Assembly: GCA_002746985.1 (NCBI GenBank)
Contig: NVXH01000007.1
Location: forward strand, 151,322-196,433
DNA: 45,112 bases
Source: Porticoccaceae bacterium
Lineage (GTDB): Bacteria; Pseudomonadota; Gammaproteobacteria; Pseudomonadales; Porticoccaceae
Reading direction: 5' to 3'
Shown: positions 31,127 to 38,978 of the stretch, piece after piece
Numbering within the stretch: position 1 is the first letter of the stretch
Layout of the letters: each line of letters opens with the position of its first letter
Program-made: the position numbers and the translations under genes
The notes under the pieces: generated by a model
Told to the model about the DNA's origin: nothing
Database searches by the model: none
The model's input: only the letters and a program-made list of their open reading frames with translations

Positions 31127-31292
31127 AGGGGAACCTGTTTGACTTGGGGTGTATAGAAATAGGGGGGCGAAGTATACGCGTATCACCCTGAAGTAGAAAG
31201 AATTATTAGTGATAACGCCCCGTGTTTACTGAAGGTTTAAACGGGGCTTTTAAGGTGATAAAAAGGGTGGGGCAGGTATATTTGTTATGCGC

Positions 31293-31782: not shown

Positions 31783-33246
31783 TTACAGGATATAGGTTAA
31801 GGTCAATTGAGTCAGCAGGCTGATAAGCAGAATTCCAGTAAGGTTGAGCCAAAAGCCAGCCTTGGCCATTTCTGGAATCGAAATCAGATTAGAGCTAAAT
31901 ACAATGGCATTGGGTGGCGTTGCTACCGGCAGCATAAAGGCACAGCTGGCCGCAATGGTGGCGGGAAGAATAATAGCCAGGGGATTAATTCCCAAACCTT
32001 CTGCCATCACTGCAAAAATGGGGATCAGCGCAGTGGTTGTGGCGGTATTGCTTGTGAGCTCAGTAAGAAAAATAATCAAACTAACCACCATTAGGGTCAT
32101 CACCAGTGGTGGTACCCCCTGCAAAATACTTAATTGGTTGGCTAGTAATTCACCCACGCCGTTGGCGCGAATAGCTCCAGCCAATGCCAGGCCGCCACCA
32201 AACAAAATCAAAACGCCCCAGGGCACCTTAAGGGCTGTGTCCCAATCCATCAAAAATTCCCGTTGTTTCAGATTAACCGGAATACTGAACAGCAGTAGCG
32301 CCGCAATAATGGCGATACCCGTATCACTTAGCCGGGAAAGTGGAGGCCATTCTATTAATAGCGGACGGCAAATCCAGCAGGCAGCGGTCAGCAGAAAAAT
32401 CGTCAGGGTTAATTTTGCGCCCATAGTCCAGGGTTCTGGTTTCTCATCGAGAAAAGAGCGGTCAATGGCCTCATCTCCCGGTGGATAAATCCATTGGGTT
32501 AGCATCCACCAAACCAGGGGTACAAATAACACCACAATAGGCAAGCCAATGGTCATCCACTTGGCAAAACTAATATCTATATCCAGTTCATTCTGAATAA
32601 AAGATACCGTAAACATATTGGGAACAGTGCCAATAATGGTGCCAATACCACCGATGGATGCCGCATAAGCAACCCCCAGTAGCAGGCAGAGGCTAAAGTT
32701 TTTACGATGAGGTGAATCTTTATCCAGCAGGCTGATAATACTCAGTAAAATTGGCAGCATCACCAACGTTGTTGCCGTATTGGTAATCCACATACTGAGT
32801 GTGGCGGCGACAAACATAAAACCACCCACCAGCGTGGCAGGTTTGGTGCCAATGAGCTTCAATACTCTAATGGCGAATCGACGATGTAGATGCCACCTCT
32901 CCAATGCCAGGGCGAGAATAAAACCACCAAGGAACAGAAAAATCAGAGGGTGAGCATAAGCACTGGCAGTTTCCTTAATAGTGCTGGCACCTGTTAGTGG
33001 CATTAGCGCCAGCGGTAATAATGCTGTGGCATAAATAGAAGTAGCTTCGGTCAGCCACCAGAGCGCCATCCAGGCAGCCATACCTGCGGTAGCTCGACCA
33101 GCAGTGCCAAGTACTATCTCTTCACCATTTAGTCCCGCCGCACGTTCAGGTACTAGTGAGTAAACCAATATTGCCAGTAAAGGCCCGGCTAATAGAGCTA
33201 GTTGACGAAATAGATGAATACCTTGGTGTAGTGGAGATGGCTGCAT
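31783..33246 (-). CDS. DASS/SLC13 family sodium:dicarboxylate/sulfate symporter
   Basis: 'SMWITNTAT', 'GIGTIIGTVPN', 'WGVLILFGGG', 'ELTSNTA', 'AFMLPVATPPNAI'. Confidence 0.92.
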   Translation of the reverse strand: MQPSPLHQGIHLFRQLALLAGPLLAILVYSLVPERAAGLNGEEIVLGTAGRATAGMAAWMALWWLTEATSIYATALLPLALMPLTGASTIKETASAYAHPLIFLFLGGFILALALERWHLHRRFAIRVLKLIGTKPATLVGGFMFVAATLSMWITNTATTLVMLPILLSIISLLDKDSPHRKNFSLCLLLGVAYAASIGGIGTIIGTVPNMFTVSFIQNELDIDISFAKWMTIGLPIVVLFVPLVWWMLTQWIYPPGDEAIDRSFLDEKPEPWTMGAKLTLTIFLLTAACWICRPLLIEWPPLSRLSDTGIAIIAALLLFSIPVNLKQREFLMDWDTALKVPWGVLILFGGGLALAGAIRANGVGELLANQLSILQGVPPLVMTLMVVSLIIFLTELTSNTATTTALIPIFAVMAEGLGINPLAIILPATIAASCAFMLPVATPPNAIVFSSNLISIPEMAKAGFWLNLTGILLISLLTQLTLTYIL

Positions 33247-33663
33247 AATTATTGTTATTGGGTGTTGTTATCTTGAGTTGGTACTAAGTAAAACAGAGCA
33301 TACCAACCGCAGCCCCAGATAATAAGAGCAATTAGAAATCGATGATTCAGGGCCGGATTAAAGGGAGTAGCATGTCGATAAGTGCTTATTTCTCCTAGAT
33401 CAGGAGGTTTGCAGTTAGGAAAATGCGGCCTTGTTCATGGGGAAAGTGGTATTAAGTGTTTGATTTTAAAGGGTGTTGAATTATGATCGGTGGCCATGGA
33501 GTGGAAAACAAAAGCAGGGATTAGGCTTCTTTTGCCAAACAACAGAATCCTCCTGTTTACTCCAATCCATTGTAAATAAAAAAATAATAGCCTTAACCGT
33601 AAATCATTTATCCCGAGATAATGGGGCCAAAGTGATATAAGGCCATAGGCTTTTGAATAAGCT

Positions 33664-33670
33664 GTTAGCT
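33664..33670 (+). other. Candidate integron core site (GTTAGCT), possibly an attI remnant, upstream of the DUF2130 gene
   Basis: GTT core 39 bp before the ATG. It is the exact reverse complement of AGCTAAC at the left end of attC1. No attC-like palindrome lies upstream of it. Confidence 0.3.
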
Positions 33671-33709
33671 GTCACTCAGAAAAATTGCAAAAGTAGAGGG
33701 TAAATAGCC

Positions 33710-35119
33710 ATGCACGAAATCATCTGTCCCCACTGTAAGAAAGCATTCAAGATTGACGAAGCTGGGTATGCAGACATTCTGAAACAGGTTCACGATAGCG
33801 AGTTTGAGCAGCAGTTGCACGAAAGGCTTGAGTTGGCCGAGAAAGATAAGACAAATGCTGTTGAGCTTGCCAAGGAAAAAGCTGGCAGCGAAATGCAGAA
33901 GGCAGCAGCAGCCAAGGACACTGAAATTCAAGATTTGAAGGCAAAATTAGAGGTTGGTGAGGTTACGCAGCAACTTGCTGTGACCGAGGCCCTGAAAGTC
34001 GTTGAAAAGGAACGCGACGAATTCGCCAACGAACTAAAACAGGCCAAGCAAGATAACGAAACCGCTTCGGAGCTAGCTAAGGCAAATCACTCAAACCAAC
34101 TACAAGAGACCTCTGCTAAAAAGAATGCAGAGATTCAAGAATTAAAGGCAAATCTCAGCGCTAACGAAATTGCGCAGAAGCATGCAATCACCGACGCGGT
34201 CAATGAAGCTGAGAAGGGGCGGGATCAACTGGAAAGTGACCTTGAACGAGTTACGCTAGAGAAGCAGCTCGCTGAGACGTCGCTCAAAGATAAGTACGAG
34301 ACGCAGATCAAGGATCGAGATGACGAGATTGAGCGCCTCCGGGATATGAAGGCCCGTCTGTCGACCAAGATGGTTGGAGAGACCCTTGAACAACACTGCG
34401 AAACTGAGTTCAACCTTATTCGAGCAACTGCGTTCCCCAAAGCATATTTTGAAAAAGATAATGACGCGCGAACTGGTAGCAAGGGCGACTACATCTTTCG
34501 CGACTCAGATGAGTTGGACACTGAGATCGTGTCGATCATGTTCGAAATGAAGAACGAGAATGATGAAACAGCGACTAAGAAGAAAAATGAAGATTTTCTT
34601 AAAGAGCTCGACAAGGATCGCATTGAAAAGCAGTGTGAATACGCGATCCTCGTATCTCTTCTTGAGCCTGATAGCGAGCTTTACAACTCAGGCATTGTCG
34701 ATGTGTCCCACCGTTACCAAAAAATGTATGTCATTCGACCACAATTTTTTATTCCGATAATTACATTGTTGCGAAACGCTGCCCAAAACTCACTCAAATA
34801 CAAAACTGAGCTAGCTATAGTAAAAGCACAGAACGTTGATGTCACAAATTTTGAGAGCGAGCTTGATGCGTTTAGGACAGGTTTTGCTCGGAACTACGAG
34901 CTAGCATCCAAGAAGTTTAAAACAGCTATTCAGGAGATCGACAAAACTATCGACCATCTTCAGAAGACCAAGGATGCGCTGCTTGGTTCTGAAAACAATC
35001 TTCGACTTGCTAACAACAAAGCCGACGACCTAACCGTCAAGAAATTAACCAAAAAAAATCCCACAATGGCAGCGAAATTCGCTGGGCTCAAGAACGATGA
35101 TAGTTCCGGTTCTACATGA
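33710..35119 (+). CDS. DUF2130 domain-containing coiled-coil protein
   Basis: 'MHEIICPHC', long coiled-coil, '[11 protein letters not shown]', 'GSKGDYIF', 'IMFEMKNE', '[14 protein letters not shown]'. Confidence 0.85.
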
Positions 35120-35149
35120 ATTGTGCTTTACCACTATTGAGCACACGCG

Positions 35150-35196
35150 TTAAAGGGGTTGTAACGATTATTAAATATTCAATCTGACCCCTTTAA
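35150..35196 (+). repeat. 47-bp imperfect palindromic repeat, copy 1
   Basis: TTAAAGGGGTTGTAACGATTATTAAATATTCAATCTGACCCCTTTAA. The perfect IR extends to 13 bp (35147-35159 / 35187-35199). Confidence 0.95.
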
Positions 35197-35363
35197 CGCT
35201 TATTACAGTTACTCAAGTTGTATTTTTAGTCAACGGTGTAAACTTTGCTCGTATATGGGAGGTTACAGAATACAAAGAGTTTTTTATCCCGCTGGCATTG
35301 TTTATATACTCCATGGATCTGTTTGCATACATGAAACGAGCACGGTCGCCCGAAAAAAGCTAA
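35196..35363 (+). pseudogene. 5'-truncated cassette gene (membrane-protein C-terminus)
   Basis: Open frame TLITVTQVVFLVNGVNFARIWEVTEYKEFFIPLALFIYSMDLFAYMKRARSPEKS* begins at the repeat edge with no usable start. Its TAA is inside the AGCTAAC box of attC1. Confidence 0.6.
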
Positions 35364-35444
35364 CAAATACATGCACTCGGACAGCAAAAAGCACCGCTTG
35401 TACCTCGCTCTACTTTTTACTGCCGGTGATGCTAGACGTTATGT
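35358..35444 (+). mobile_element. attC site 1 (87 bp)
   Basis: AGCTAAC...GTTATGT. Inner stem CAT(G)CAC(T)CGG/CCGGTGATG with two extrahelical bases, then CAGCAAAAAG/CTTTTTACTG. Confidence 0.85.
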
Positions 35445-35469
35445 GGATCTAAACCGAATTTTTTCTGTA

Positions 35470-35586
35470 ATGGGAAGGTCAAAAAAAGTTGTACCTGACC
35501 CTACTTATTTCTTACTTGAGGCTACAAAATTTCAAAAGCTAGACGTTAGATTTTGTCCTTGTTGCGGGGGCAACGTTGAAATATAA
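35470..35586 (+). CDS. 38-aa ORF of a mini cassette
   Basis: MGRSKKVVPDPTYFLLEATKFQKLDVRFCPCCGGNVEI*. The stop lies in the ATATAAC box of attC2. Confidence 0.4.
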   Translation: MGRSKKVVPDPTYFLLEATKFQKLDVRFCPCCGGNVEI

Positions 35587-35652
35587 CAAGGTGTTGTTAG
35601 CCACTTCGTGGCTGGGGCAGCCTACGCGTTGCCCCAAACCACGGCGTTAAAT
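35581..35652 (+). mobile_element. attC site 2 (72 bp)
   Basis: ATATAAC...GTTAAAT, with internal hairpins AGCCAC/GTGGCT and GGGGCA/TGCCCC. Confidence 0.75.
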
Positions 35653-35665
35653 ATATAGGTACGAA

Positions 35666-36046
35666 ATGGAATATTTTCTATTAGCAATAATTGCTCTATG
35701 TCCTCTTGTTGTAGCAGGACTATTTTCGGCATTATCAAAGAGCTCTATTGACTCAAAATTTGAGTTCATTTTAATCGTATTGTCTTGTTACGGTATCTAT
35801 TACATGACATTAGTGGTTTATGGCCATTTGGAGAAAATTTTCGAAAACTATATGTATTTAAACTGTGGTTATACAGGTGAACAGCTTTCCCCCTGTAGTG
35901 AAGTTCTATATCTATTAGATAAATTTGTTGCCAATTGGCTCTTTGTCATCAGTGTGCTCTTGTCTATTAGTTTACAAATTTATCTGCTCTACAGTATTCA
36001 GAAGCGTAATATATTTAACAAGTCAAAGCAGTCAGGGACAAGCTAA
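35666..36046 (+). CDS. Cassette-encoded hypothetical membrane protein, 126 aa
   Basis: Three hydrophobic segments. Starts 13 bp after the attC2 core and runs into attC3. No family recognised. Confidence 0.7.
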   Translation: MEYFLLAIIALCPLVVAGLFSALSKSSIDSKFEFILIVLSCYGIYYMTLVVYGHLEKIFENYMYLNCGYTGEQLSPCSEVLYLLDKFVANWLFVISVLLSISLQIYLLYSIQKRNIFNKSKQSGTS

Positions 36047-36073
36047 CGCTTTCCCCTGTTTGAGGCGTTATGT
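36013..36073 (+). mobile_element. attC site 3 (61 bp)
   Basis: ATTTAAC...GTTATGT with stem TCAAA(G)CAG/CTGTTTGA. ATTTAAC is the exact complement of the preceding core GTTAAAT. Confidence 0.85.
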
Positions 36074-36148
36074 GGATCTAAATCGAGGTTTTTTTGAAGA
36101 AATGTGATGTAATTGGAATAATCTTAAAGAATTACCCAGACACAATAA

Positions 36149-36634
36149 ATGGTTTCTATGCAGTCTTTTAGTACTCAATTTATCTTATCTCGAGATTACC
36201 TTGCTGAGTGTTTTGATCAGTCTTTACCCTATAGAAAAAATGCCAAGCTCAATTATCTATTTCCTGCATTATTGTTTGCTGCTGGTGCGGGATTACTGAT
36301 TTTTACTGAGCAAGCTAAGGTCGTAGGTAGTATTTTAATCGCGTTGGCTGTGCTGGAGCTGATTCATATTCGATTTCGACGAGCTTGGTGGTTAACACGG
36401 CAGATGTGGGGGAAAAGTTCTGGCGGTGAGGTAAAATTAACCATAGATGAAAATGGGATCCAAACACAGAACGCCTATACGCAAACAACGCTATTGTGGG
36501 CAGATGTTGAGCGCGTTATAGAAACCGATTTAGGGCTTATTCTGGTGGCTAAAGCTGGAGGTCAGCAGTACCTGTCTAAATCGTTATTTTCTGTTGAGTT
36601 GATAAGCAAGATTGTTGCGAGGAATAAGGATTAA
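36149..36634 (+). CDS. YcxB-like family membrane protein (cassette gene)
   Basis: Two TM helices, then 'LTIDENGI...LLWADVERVIETDLGLIL...QYLSKSLF'. Confidence 0.72.
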   Translation: MVSMQSFSTQFILSRDYLAECFDQSLPYRKNAKLNYLFPALLFAAGAGLLIFTEQAKVVGSILIALAVLELIHIRFRRAWWLTRQMWGKSSGGEVKLTIDENGIQTQNAYTQTTLLWADVERVIETDLGLILVAKAGGQQYLSKSLFSVELISKIVARNKD

Positions 36635-36685
36635 CATTCACTTCAATAAAAATTGAAATCGCTCCTATAATGCAGCTAATACAGT

Positions 36686-36692
36686 ACATAAC
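36686..36692 (+). mobile_element. Left box only (ACATAAC) of a truncated attC site 4
   Basis: Exact complement of the GTTATGT that opens this cassette (36067-36073). Repeat copy 2 begins 4 bp later in place of the rest of the attC. Confidence 0.6.
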
Positions 36693-36696
36693 TGAA

Positions 36697-36744
36697 TTAA
36701 ATGGGGTCGTAACGATTATTAAATATTCAATCTGACCCCTTTAA
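36697..36744 (+). repeat. 47-bp repeat family, copy 2 (48 bp)
   Basis: TTAAATGGGGTCGTAACGATTATTAAATATTCAATCTGACCCCTTTAA (one inserted T). Confidence 0.95.
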
Positions 36745-36773
36745 CCGATTTACAACTCCTAGAGACCCAGTTC

Positions 36774-37232
36774 ATGAACGTCACTATAAACGGATATGTC
36801 AGCTATATCTGCAAAAGTTGTAGTAAAGCATACATGGTCGAAAGCCAATCTTTAACTTTTGTAGAAGATACCAGCCCAGAGGCTGAGGACTATAATTATA
36901 TTTGCTACGTCTCTCAAGTTAGCGAAGCCTGCACCTCTTGCGAAAATGATGTGCATATTAAAATTGAAATATGGGAATACCCCGAAGCGGCTATTAACTA
37001 CTCATATTCCGCCATAGAAGGCGCTATCGATATAGAATGCGAGTTTTGTATCGAACACTATTTCGACGAAGCAGCCGCCAAGGAAGAAGACACCGAACAT
37101 GACCCAGAACCCGCCAAAAATACTAAAACCGAGGATGAAAGTAAAAGTACCTATAACTATAACGAAGACACAGCGCGACTCCATGAACCGTCTACCGCTG
37201 AACGCTATATAGATATGTATGACGATGAATAG
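36774..37232 (+). CDS. Hypothetical acidic protein with two CxxC motifs, 152 aa
   Basis: CKSC and CTSC, 'IWEYPEA', D/E-rich tail. Fills the space between repeat copies 2 and 3. Confidence 0.7.
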   Translation: MNVTINGYVSYICKSCSKAYMVESQSLTFVEDTSPEAEDYNYICYVSQVSEACTSCENDVHIKIEIWEYPEAAINYSYSAIEGAIDIECEFCIEHYFDEAAAKEEDTEHDPEPAKNTKTEDESKSTYNYNEDTARLHEPSTAERYIDMYDDE

Positions 37233-37237
37233 AGTAA

Positions 37238-37284
37238 TTAAAGGGGTCGTAACGATTATTAAATATTCAATCTGATCCCTTTAA
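37238..37284 (+). repeat. 47-bp repeat family, copy 3
   Basis: TTAAAGGGGTCGTAACGATTATTAAATATTCAATCTGATCCCTTTAA (one substitution in the right arm). Confidence 0.95.
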
Positions 37285-37409
37285 CGAATTTCTGTATAAA
37301 AGAGCGCATTCCTGTCACTTATCCTTATGTAGGTGTGTAATCACCGGGTTTAAGCTGCTAATCAGAGTGCGCTTTGATAAGATGCGCCCATTTTAAGTCG
37401 GAAATCCCC

Positions 37410-38978
37410 ATGTTTAGTTTGATCGTTAGCAAAGAATCCAATGTAAAGAATGATTTACTCTCTGGATTGACCGTTGCTTTGGCATTAGTGCCGGAGGCGG
37501 TAGCCTTTGCTTTTGTGGCTGGGGTTGCGCCCATGGTGGGGATGTATGCAGCCTTTATGATGGGTTTGGTTGCTGCTGTATTCGGTGGTCGCCCTGGTAT
37601 GATTTCAGGTGCCACTGGTGCTATGGCCGTTGTGGTAGTTGCTTTGGTGGCTAGTCACGGAGTGCAATATCTATTTGCCGCTGTGCTATTGGCTGGCGTG
37701 TTTCAAATTCTGTTCGGTGTGTTTCATCTGGGAAAATTTATTCGTTTGGTTCCCTACCCTGTGATGTTGGGCTTTGTTAATGGTTTGGCCATCGTTATTT
37801 TTCTGGCCCAGCTTGATCAATTTAAAGTGCCTGATGCTTCGGGTGTGCTTACATGGATGATGGGTGGCGAGCTGTACTTGATGTTGGGCCTGGTAATTTT
37901 AACCATGGCGATTATCCAGTATTTGCCCCGATTAACCACGGCTGTGCCTGCGTCTCTGGTCGCTATTATTATGGTGACGTTGATGGTTCATGGCCTTGAT
38001 ATTGATACTCGAACCGTTATTGATTTTGTTCGGGGTATGTTGCCAGTAGATCAGCAGGCATCGGCAAGTCTTGAAGGTGAGCTGCCAAGCTTTGCGATAC
38101 CGATGGTGCCGTTCACGTTAGAGACATTACGTGTTATCGGGCCCTATGCCATCATTTTGGCATTGGTCGGCCTGATCGAGTCGCTTTTAACCCTGTCATT
38201 GATTGATGATCTTACTAATACCCGTGGGCGAGGAAATCGTGAATGTATTGGCCAGGGGTTGGGGAATACCATTAATGGATTCTTCGGTGGTATGGGCGGT
38301 TGTGCCATGATTGGCCAGAGTATGATCAATATTAATTCTGGTGGGCGGGGACGTTTATCGGGAATTACGGCAGCATTAGTTTTGCTGGCTTGTATTCTTT
38401 TTGTGTCTGACCTGATTGAAATGATTCCCCTGGCGGTATTAGTGGGTGTCATGTTTATGGTGGTGTTGGGCACCTTTGAGTGGGCTTCGTTTCGAATTTT
38501 TCGTGCTATGCAGCGCAGTGATGCGTTTATCTCCATATTGGTTGCTGCTGTTACCGTGTTTACTGATCTGGCTATTGCAGTAATTGTTGGTGTGATTGTT
38601 TCTGCACTGGTGTTTGCATGGCAGCATGCCAAGCATATTTCTGTTTCTACCTATACGGATGAAGATGGCTGGAAAGTTTACGAACTGGATGGCCCCATAT
38701 TTTTTGGGTCAGTTAGCAACTTTAAAGAGTTATTCTCTCCTGAGACGGACCCTGATGATGTAGTGATCGAATTTAAAAATGCACGGGTATCAGACTCCTC
38801 TGCCATTGAAGCACTACATGGGTTAGCTCATAAGTATAAAAAATGCGGCAAAAAACTACACCTTCGCCACCTAAGTCAGGATTGTTTACAGTTGTTAGAT
38901 GATGCCGCTCGTTATGTGGAAATAAACATCAATGAAGACCCACGTTATAAAGTGGCAACTGATGCATATGATGACTAA
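37410..38978 (+). CDS. SulP/SLC26 family anion transporter (second, different subfamily)
   Basis: '[19 protein letters not shown]', '[13 protein letters not shown]', '[12 protein letters not shown]', STAS domain ('GPIFFGS'). ATG 37410 preferred. Confidence 0.92.

Follow-up and report, generated by a model that had tools for sequence, protein, structure and literature searches.

We found that the window (the whole 45,112-nt stretch of Porticoccaceae DNA analysed here) carries an array of four to five gene cassettes between 33664 and about 37300 that no integrase gene adjoins. With a probability of about 0.8, this array is headed by an attI-type site, was built by attI × attC recombination with an integrase from another locus, and is read from a promoter in the attI-type module at its head. 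The initial annotation of this DNA had recognised an integron cassette array without integrase (CALIN), and this description holds, as there are three attC sites in the same orientation, the cassette boundaries are chained and no intI match is present. The array is a CALIN of an undescribed kind, attI-headed and dispersed.

attC sites and cassettes

attC sites are recombined by IntI as a folded bottom strand; on the top strand, they carry an R'' box (RYYYAAC) at the 5' end and an R' box (GTTRRRY) at the 3' end, 50-150 nt apart. The initial annotation had proposed three such sites on the + strand and had named two grounds on which they would have to be abandoned, namely insignificant matches to an attC covariance model, or bottom strands that do not form the R/L-box stem with correctly oriented extrahelical bases. 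We built an attC covariance model without any window sequence. The ten seeds (arms only) were taken from further arrays in this genome; two lie immediately downstream of the intact intI of contig C15 and one lies downstream of the intI of contig C8. The first-pass model (R1) yielded 50 sites in 160 kb of non-window loci, and 29 of these training sites lie in arrays adjoining genes above the curated integron-integrase threshold (TIGR02249). The model was rebuilt on the 50 sites (R2) and run over the whole window with filters off.

We found that exactly three + strand matches to R2 are significant in the 45 kb, with ends identical to those first annotated: attC1 at 35358-35444 (87 nt; AGCTAAC..GTTATGT; 38.6 bits, E=2.4e-7), attC2 at 35581-35652 (72 nt; ATATAAC..GTTAAAT; 30.2 bits, E=3.1e-5) and attC3 at 36013-36073 (61 nt; ATTTAAC..GTTATGT; 43.9 bits, E=1.2e-8). 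Each of the three has both the R'' and the R' box. There is no significant R2 match in the remainder of the window; the E-values are rough (short calibration), yet the gap from 3.1e-5 to the next best match at E=0.66 is wide. R1 already matched attC3 (E=2.6e-8). Genome-wide, R2 gave 33 matches at E<=0.01, mostly in small same-strand clusters, and the genome-wide E-values of attC1 and attC2 are 1.4e-5 and 1.8e-3, respectively. An Rfam search of 33000-38000 at E<=10 returned chance matches only, and Rfam is without an attC family. Scans for AAC..GTT hairpins and an 'array walker' were too noisy and are not used as evidence.

The bottom strands of the three sites fold better than shuffled sequences (z -2.3 to -2.9), with attC1 at z=-2.35 and its bulges on the 3' arm. 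In the R2 alignments, G16 and T20 are unpaired on the left arm of both attC1 and attC3, as is A24 in attC1. The unpaired bases of the window sites sit on the arm that holds the top-strand AAC (model positions 16, 20 and 24 in attC1), so their geometry is that of a published account in which asymmetric extrahelical bases on the AAC-bearing arm are said to steer the integrase to the bottom strand (PMC5027507). The weakest of the three is attC2, which has an irregular left arm with an extra hairpin and shows the extrahelical bases in part only. The extrahelical G/T first reported is right for the top strand, and on the recombined bottom strand these bases are C/A. The earlier view that the three attC sequences are unrelated fails, since they have a clade consensus in common (TAACAAG...GGCGTTA, bulges at 16/20); the cassettes may or may not stem from different donors. 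Hence, because the model matches, the bottom strands fold and the bulges are on the proper arm, neither ground for abandoning the sites arose, and the three attC are real integron sites.

Reading the boxes in the sequence reproduced the complementarity first described at the cassette boundaries. GTTAAAT (35646) and ATTTAAC (36013) are complementary 7/7, as are GTTATGT (36067) and ACATAAC (36686), and GTTATGT (35438) pairs with ATATAAC (35581) 6/7; the chance of a 4/4 match outside the fixed AAC/GTT is 1/256. A further boundary lies upstream of those annotated, where GTTAGCT (33664) is complementary 7/7 to AGCTAAC, the R'' box of attC1 at 35358. Hence, the DUF2130 gene between them is cassette 1, and the array starts at 33664, 1.7 kb before the start at 35358 given by the initial annotation.

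All cassettes lie on the + strand. Cassette 1 (33665-35438) consists of the DUF2130 gene (33710-35119; Pfam DUF2130, E=8e-90), the palindrome P1 (35147-35199) and attC1, so the statement that each attC directly follows an ORF does not extend to attC1, which begins 240 nt beyond the DUF2130 stop. Cassette 2 (35439-35646; 208 bp) holds a small ORF at 35472-35586 (38 aa) or at 35371-35586 (71 aa, with its start inside attC1), and cassette 3 (35647-36067) holds a hydrophobic 126-aa ORF (35666-36046); a Pfam search found no family for either. The ORF stops had been placed in or near the AAC boxes, which is correct for the small ORF (stop inside the R'' box of attC2) and incorrect for the 126-aa ORF, whose stop is in the attC3 loop. 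Cassette 4 (36068-36750) holds a YcxB-like 161-aa ORF (36149-36634; Pfam YcxB, E=5.6e-7), the R'' box ACATAAC and the palindrome P2. This box had been reported as the left box of a fourth attC; it is a correct R'' box, and what follows it is a 50-bp palindrome that the model does not score. A 152-aa acidic CxxC ORF (36774-37232, +) lies between P2 and the palindrome P3. It falls within the stretch that synteny marks as variable and is a possible fifth cassette with palindromes as its bounds. The cassette products (DUF2130, YcxB-like and small unknown proteins) include nothing of medical concern.

The attI-type module and the integrase genes

The GTT at 33664 marks the end of element X (33392-33663, +), a 272-bp repeat that corresponds to the intI-attI intergenic region of the integron on contig C8. 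The last 38-45 bp of X form a module, GCCAAAGTGATATAAGGCCATAGGCTTCTGAATAAGCT|GTTA, which in the window occupies 33626-33670 (+) and reads GCCAAAGTGATATAAGGCCATAGGCTTTTGAATAAGCT followed by the crossover heptamer GTTAGCT (33664-33670). In an alignment of 36 distinct module copies, conservation is 87% up to GTTA, and no consensus is left in the three columns that follow. Similarly, the genome has about 10 copies of X (76-88% identity), in which similarity ceases right after GTT(A) and the following three or four letters are different in every copy. Other genomes of many Porticoccus have 1-12 copies of X each.

Every copy of X or of the short module is followed on the same strand by 1-4 model-significant attC sites. 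The junction heptamer matches the R'' box of the first attC 7/7 at the window, C5:145280, C6, C8:8427 and C8:88158, and 6/7 in three more copies of the genome. Since similarity ends at G|TT and each heptamer pairs with the R'' box of the attC that follows, these junctions are integrase-type crossovers.

Cognate IntI binds and recombines an attI in double-stranded form. We found the module at the attI position, about 320 bp from the intI start and divergent from it, in G005, G003, G040, G038 and on contig C8 of the present genome, with G040 and G038 being two genomes outside the family that both have the intI-linked module. The C8 copy of X lies between the stop-bearing intI and its single cassette, and in the G005 integron, intI is intact and accompanied by a LexA box and about 10 cassettes. 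Where the junctions of these integrons were read (G005, G040 and C8), the first attC matches the module junction 7/7. In the five integrons, the module family thus lies between intI and the first cassette and has the crossover G|TT; the window copy shows the crossover part of this definition only, by its 7/7 match with attC1 and by the point at which similarity to G013 ends. Because of the intI-adjacent position and the matching junctions, the module is predicted to be the attI of this integrase clade. The array accordingly appears not to be a headless fragment, as what stands at its head looks like a complete attI-type site. The integron on C15 has an attI of different sequence and like layout (palindrome, 11 nt, GTTA).

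The module holds an extended -10-like motif, TGATATAAG (33633-33641), 22 bp upstream of the crossover and pointing into the cassettes; a generic promoter scan did not flag it and did not surpass shuffles. We infer that this motif would be the promoter of the cassettes. The module also contains an inverted repeat, AGGCC-ATA-GGCTT (33640-33652), 11 nt upstream of the crossover. Its covariation is weak (87% paired, with 13 of 500 shuffles equally good), and the structured-RNA test of X covered only this small repeat. We rejected X as a giant attC or a cassette, for it is without a conserved R'' box, its left boundary is not at GTT and its last 110 nt form no R/L hairpin.

The genome (2.59 Mb, 15 contigs) was searched for intI with the TIGR02249 profile, a check that the initial annotation had proposed. 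There is an intact intI on C15, one with an in-frame stop on C8, and fragments on C11. The window is matchless, as first annotated, and a DASS transporter gene is found upstream of X. The stop in the C8 intI is located in box II, ahead of the catalytic Tyr, and because an ambiguous base (N) adjoins it, it may be an assembly error. Hence, with intact intI on C15 and a stop-bearing one on C8, the would-be cognate integrase of the window array is in trans or recently dead.

When a collection of 185k species, with a single genome for each, was scanned for the module pattern, 31 copies turned up, in Porticoccus, other Porticoccaceae and Cellvibrionales, Microbulbifer, HTCC2143, Spongiibacteraceae and Aestuariirhabdus. 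Of the 31, a single copy adjoins intI, whereas at least 26 are solo, with no intI within 0.8 kb or more upstream; about 21 have attC downstream on the same strand. Most solo modules lead into attC cassettes with a first box that fits the junction. The present genome has about 10 short arrays headed by the module, and other Cellvibrionales have dozens, mostly without intI. G005, with its intact cognate intI, has two further solo modules, and G004, in which no intI was found, has two. All four carry a lineage-specific variant, GAATTTACT, and the arrays behind them show 7/7 complementarity at each junction. Hence, the solo modules track the resident attI and have served as crossover sites.

Origin of the array

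CALINs and complete integrons are found at similar frequencies; a CALIN might arise by loss of intI, by rearrangement or by insertion at a random genomic site. The window array lies in a variable region (33369-37336) between the DASS transporter gene (31783-33246, -) and a SulP gene (37374-38978, +); similarity to relatives ends at 33321-33368 and is back at 37319-37337. In G013, similarity continues through the transporter gene and X and ceases at the crossover, where the junction is GTTAGGT, followed by unrelated DNA. At the orthologous spot, both G017 and G003 carry a short, degenerate module together with a cassette for a CxxC protein; G017 has an attC in addition, and G003 has katG. More distant species are missing the whole region, SulP included. 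At least five metagenome assemblies made independently, with crustal-fluid samples named as a source, contain the array together with both flanks, collinear in every case, and the array therefore is not a chimera. No rearranged version was found among the public assemblies that cover it; cassette order is identical in them, and hence there is no sign of current shuffling.

This uniform order would also suit an inert relic, that is, a former complete integron from which intI was deleted in place, leaving attI and cassettes behind. In keeping with such a deletion, X is the intI-proximal intergenic region of the C8 integron, and CALINs reportedly arise by such loss, according to the summary of Cury 2016 in bioRxiv 10.1101/2022.09.11.507474. 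Yet the window holds no intI fragment, and the upstream region of the transporter gene is intact to 33368, with X beginning about 25 bp later. At least nine X copies on six contigs have one common left boundary, about 60-75 bp short of the expected intI start, and most modules in other genomes are solo, as counted above. None of the relatives compared at the orthologous locus has intI, yet G013, G003 and G017 have different cassettes there, a pattern that favours turnover of cassettes at a solo attI over a deletion of intI on the spot. We consider loss in place unlikely.

The cassettes might instead have entered at an ordinary genomic secondary site (attG, consensus GWT), in which case the conservation upstream would be a coincidence. 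Integrases can place cassettes at positions other than att sites, for which there is experimental evidence from IntI1 in E. coli, and such insertions are a possible origin of small CALINs and SALINs; the attG consensus, however, is only 3 nt long (bioRxiv 10.1101/2022.09.11.507474). The junction in the window comes at the end of a 38-45 bp module with the 87% conservation noted above, and this module is also what stands at the attI position of integrons with intI, which makes a chance insertion very improbable. Least credible of all is that REP-like palindromes or terminators mimic the AAC...GTT boxes by chance. Although short palindromes are common in intergenic DNA and the 50-bp palindromes of the region are not canonical attC, the model E-values of 1e-8 to 3e-5 have no counterpart elsewhere in the 45 kb, four boundary matches are chained (each 4/4 match at 1/256), the bulges at 16/20/24 are on the correct arm and the same architecture stands beside true intI genes.

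The reading we favour remains attI × attC recombination at the module with an integrase from another locus. This recombination would have inserted the cassettes, and it would have been catalysed in trans by a C8-type enzyme (now stop-interrupted) or possibly by the intact C15-type enzyme. Transcription of the cassettes would start from TGATATAAG in the module. While the anatomy of the junctions is shown, both the action of the integrase in trans and the transcription of the array are inferred.

A wider reading is that Porticoccus and other Cellvibrionales have a 'distributed integron', with one or no intI and many solo attI-plus-promoter modules that capture and express short arrays. We offer this tentatively, at somewhat less than even odds. 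If it is true, many CALINs would be working platforms served in trans rather than debris, and the window array would be a satellite platform at a hotspot that persists from species to species as the cassettes are exchanged.

Known systems and the palindromes P1 to P3

A CALIN is reportedly defined by Cury and colleagues, for IntegronFinder, as two or more attC spaced by under 4 kb that have no integron-integrase in the 4 kb around them. The window array has three attC within about 720 bp, and intI occurs only on C15, C8 and, as fragments, C11; an intI adjoining attI and cassettes, as in a complete integron, is absent from the window. The array resembles other CALINs in its closely spaced, co-oriented attC sites, its intervening cassette ORFs and the lack of intI in the surrounding 4 kb. 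Unlike them, it is headed by a complete attI-type site, as far as its sequence tells, with a promoter-like motif; this head is one of about 10 in the genome, and the locus is a hotspot with different cassettes in sister species. A literature search for CALINs headed by a multi-copy or solo attI, or for Porticoccus integrons, found no relevant description.

With complete integrons (G005 and C15), the array has in common the order attI-cassette-attC, the G|TT crossover, the 7/7 junctions and the attC consensus, but it has no adjacent intI or LexA box, and its integrase is in trans or extinct. As in attG or SALIN insertion (Loot et al., bioRxiv 2022.09.11.507474), cassettes lie outside the canonical platform, whereas the window offers, in place of a loose GWT, a long conserved target module with the same sequence as the resident attI. 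The reaction at such a target would therefore be an efficient attI × attC recombination.

The head of the array is readable: a putative cognate attI with a promoter-like motif, many chromosomal copies, clean junctions and species-specific cassettes. If the modules work in trans, an integron is not necessarily a single locus, cassette capture and expression would be possible at many sites per genome, and tools that seek attC beside intI would systematically mislabel such platforms.

The array also carries three copies of a palindrome, P, on the + strand: P1, in cassette 1; P2 (36698-36748), joined to the R'' box ACATAAC (36686-36692) at the end of cassette 4; and P3 (37238-37288), after the 152-aa ORF. 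An R'' box accompanies P2 only, and none of the three has a GTT; the P2 unit is without the R' box, with TTTACAA at the place expected for GTTxxxx. The genome has eight copies of P and one masked copy, with seven of the nine in three cassette arrays, and none was found in 60 relatives. Two explanations for P were set aside. As a canonical attC, it gives no R2 match at E<=10 and forms a perfect stem without extrahelical bases; as a REP moved by a neighbouring RAYT, it would need a nearer partner than the sole Pfam Y1_Tnp match, at C15:136 kb, which is 100 kb from any copy.

P resembles species-specific attC families (the VCRs of Vibrio) as a highly conserved, species-restricted palindrome at cassette ends, and differs from such families and from REP/REPIN in that it mostly has no AAC/GTT boxes, no extrahelical bases and no model score. 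P may represent a lineage-specific attC family that has degenerated, or else some other type of repeat associated with arrays. The one or two units that close the array have this species-specific 50-bp palindrome at their end in place of a normal attC and are probably frozen. Most P copies are without R boxes. One copy on C15 lies between TTCTAAC and GTTAAGA and matches the upstream junction 7/7; hence, P can occupy the core of an attC.

Cassette starts and composition within the window

The array in the window lies in the variable region (33369-37336), which is flanked by the genes for the DASS transporter and SulP. We found that cassettes 2 and 4 of this array begin alike, their first ~30 nt (35434-35467 and 36063-36096) sharing the form GTTATGTGGATCTAAAYCGA...TTTTTT with 85% identity. 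This cassette-start motif had no further occurrence in the source genome or in the related loci compared. The G+C content is 41% for the variable region and 44% for the whole window, and is only 34% for cassette 3.

Outside the array, an attC-like sequence, GCATAACAAA...GGGGCGTTATCA, is present on the - strand at 31210-31290, immediately 3' of the DUF188 gene. In a search of the whole window with R2, a covariance model built from attC sites outside the window, it was the top match beyond the array, at a non-significant 12.7 bits (E = 0.66). The sequence after DUF188 may be a relic of an old single cassette.

Integrase and transposase loci on other contigs

The copy of X (a 272-bp repeat that ends in an attI-type module) on contig C8 of the source genome is adjoined by an intI gene (C8, 7122-8103), in which a TAA stop codon falls in box II (LRTxQ*LLGHSD), immediately beside an N of the assembly. 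The call of this intI as a pseudogene may be an assembly artefact. An intact integron is found on contig C15, and its attI (189570-189634) consists of GAGGCCGTACGGCCTC, 11 nt and GTTATGT. Its layout is like that of the attI-type module of X (a short palindrome, 11 nt and the crossover), but the rest of the sequence is different.

At the end of C15, we found a fragment of an IS200/RAYT-like transposase (249350-249991), ~2.5 kb from the C15 array that bears the species-specific 50-bp palindrome P; the fragment gave no match in a Pfam Y1_Tnp search.

Tandem X copies and hotspot content in relatives

A tandem pair of X copies with five attC sites lies on contig C5 at 143863-147448, ~4-7 kb before the window begins, and the chained junctions of this array are all 6/7 or 7/7. 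The array is 99.86% identical to the public contig JAESTN010000421.1, binned as Flavobacteriaceae NORP315, on which X adjoins a DASS-transporter flank just 82% identical to that of the window. Either JAESTN010000421.1 shows the C5 array in a second species, at the hotspot orthologous to that of the window, or it is a mis-binned co-assembly chimera.

A cassette for a CxxC protein (MCNCKEQPE...), together with a degenerate module, is present in the source genome on the - strand of contig C3 (158800-159222). In related genomes G017 (contig C1) and G003 (contig C17), this same CxxC cassette and a degenerate module instead occupy the orthologous hotspot, with the DASS transporter gene on one side and SulP on the other. 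In G003, the variable region also carries, between the module and SulP, a katG-like catalase-peroxidase gene of ~2.2 kb that follows a truncated attC.
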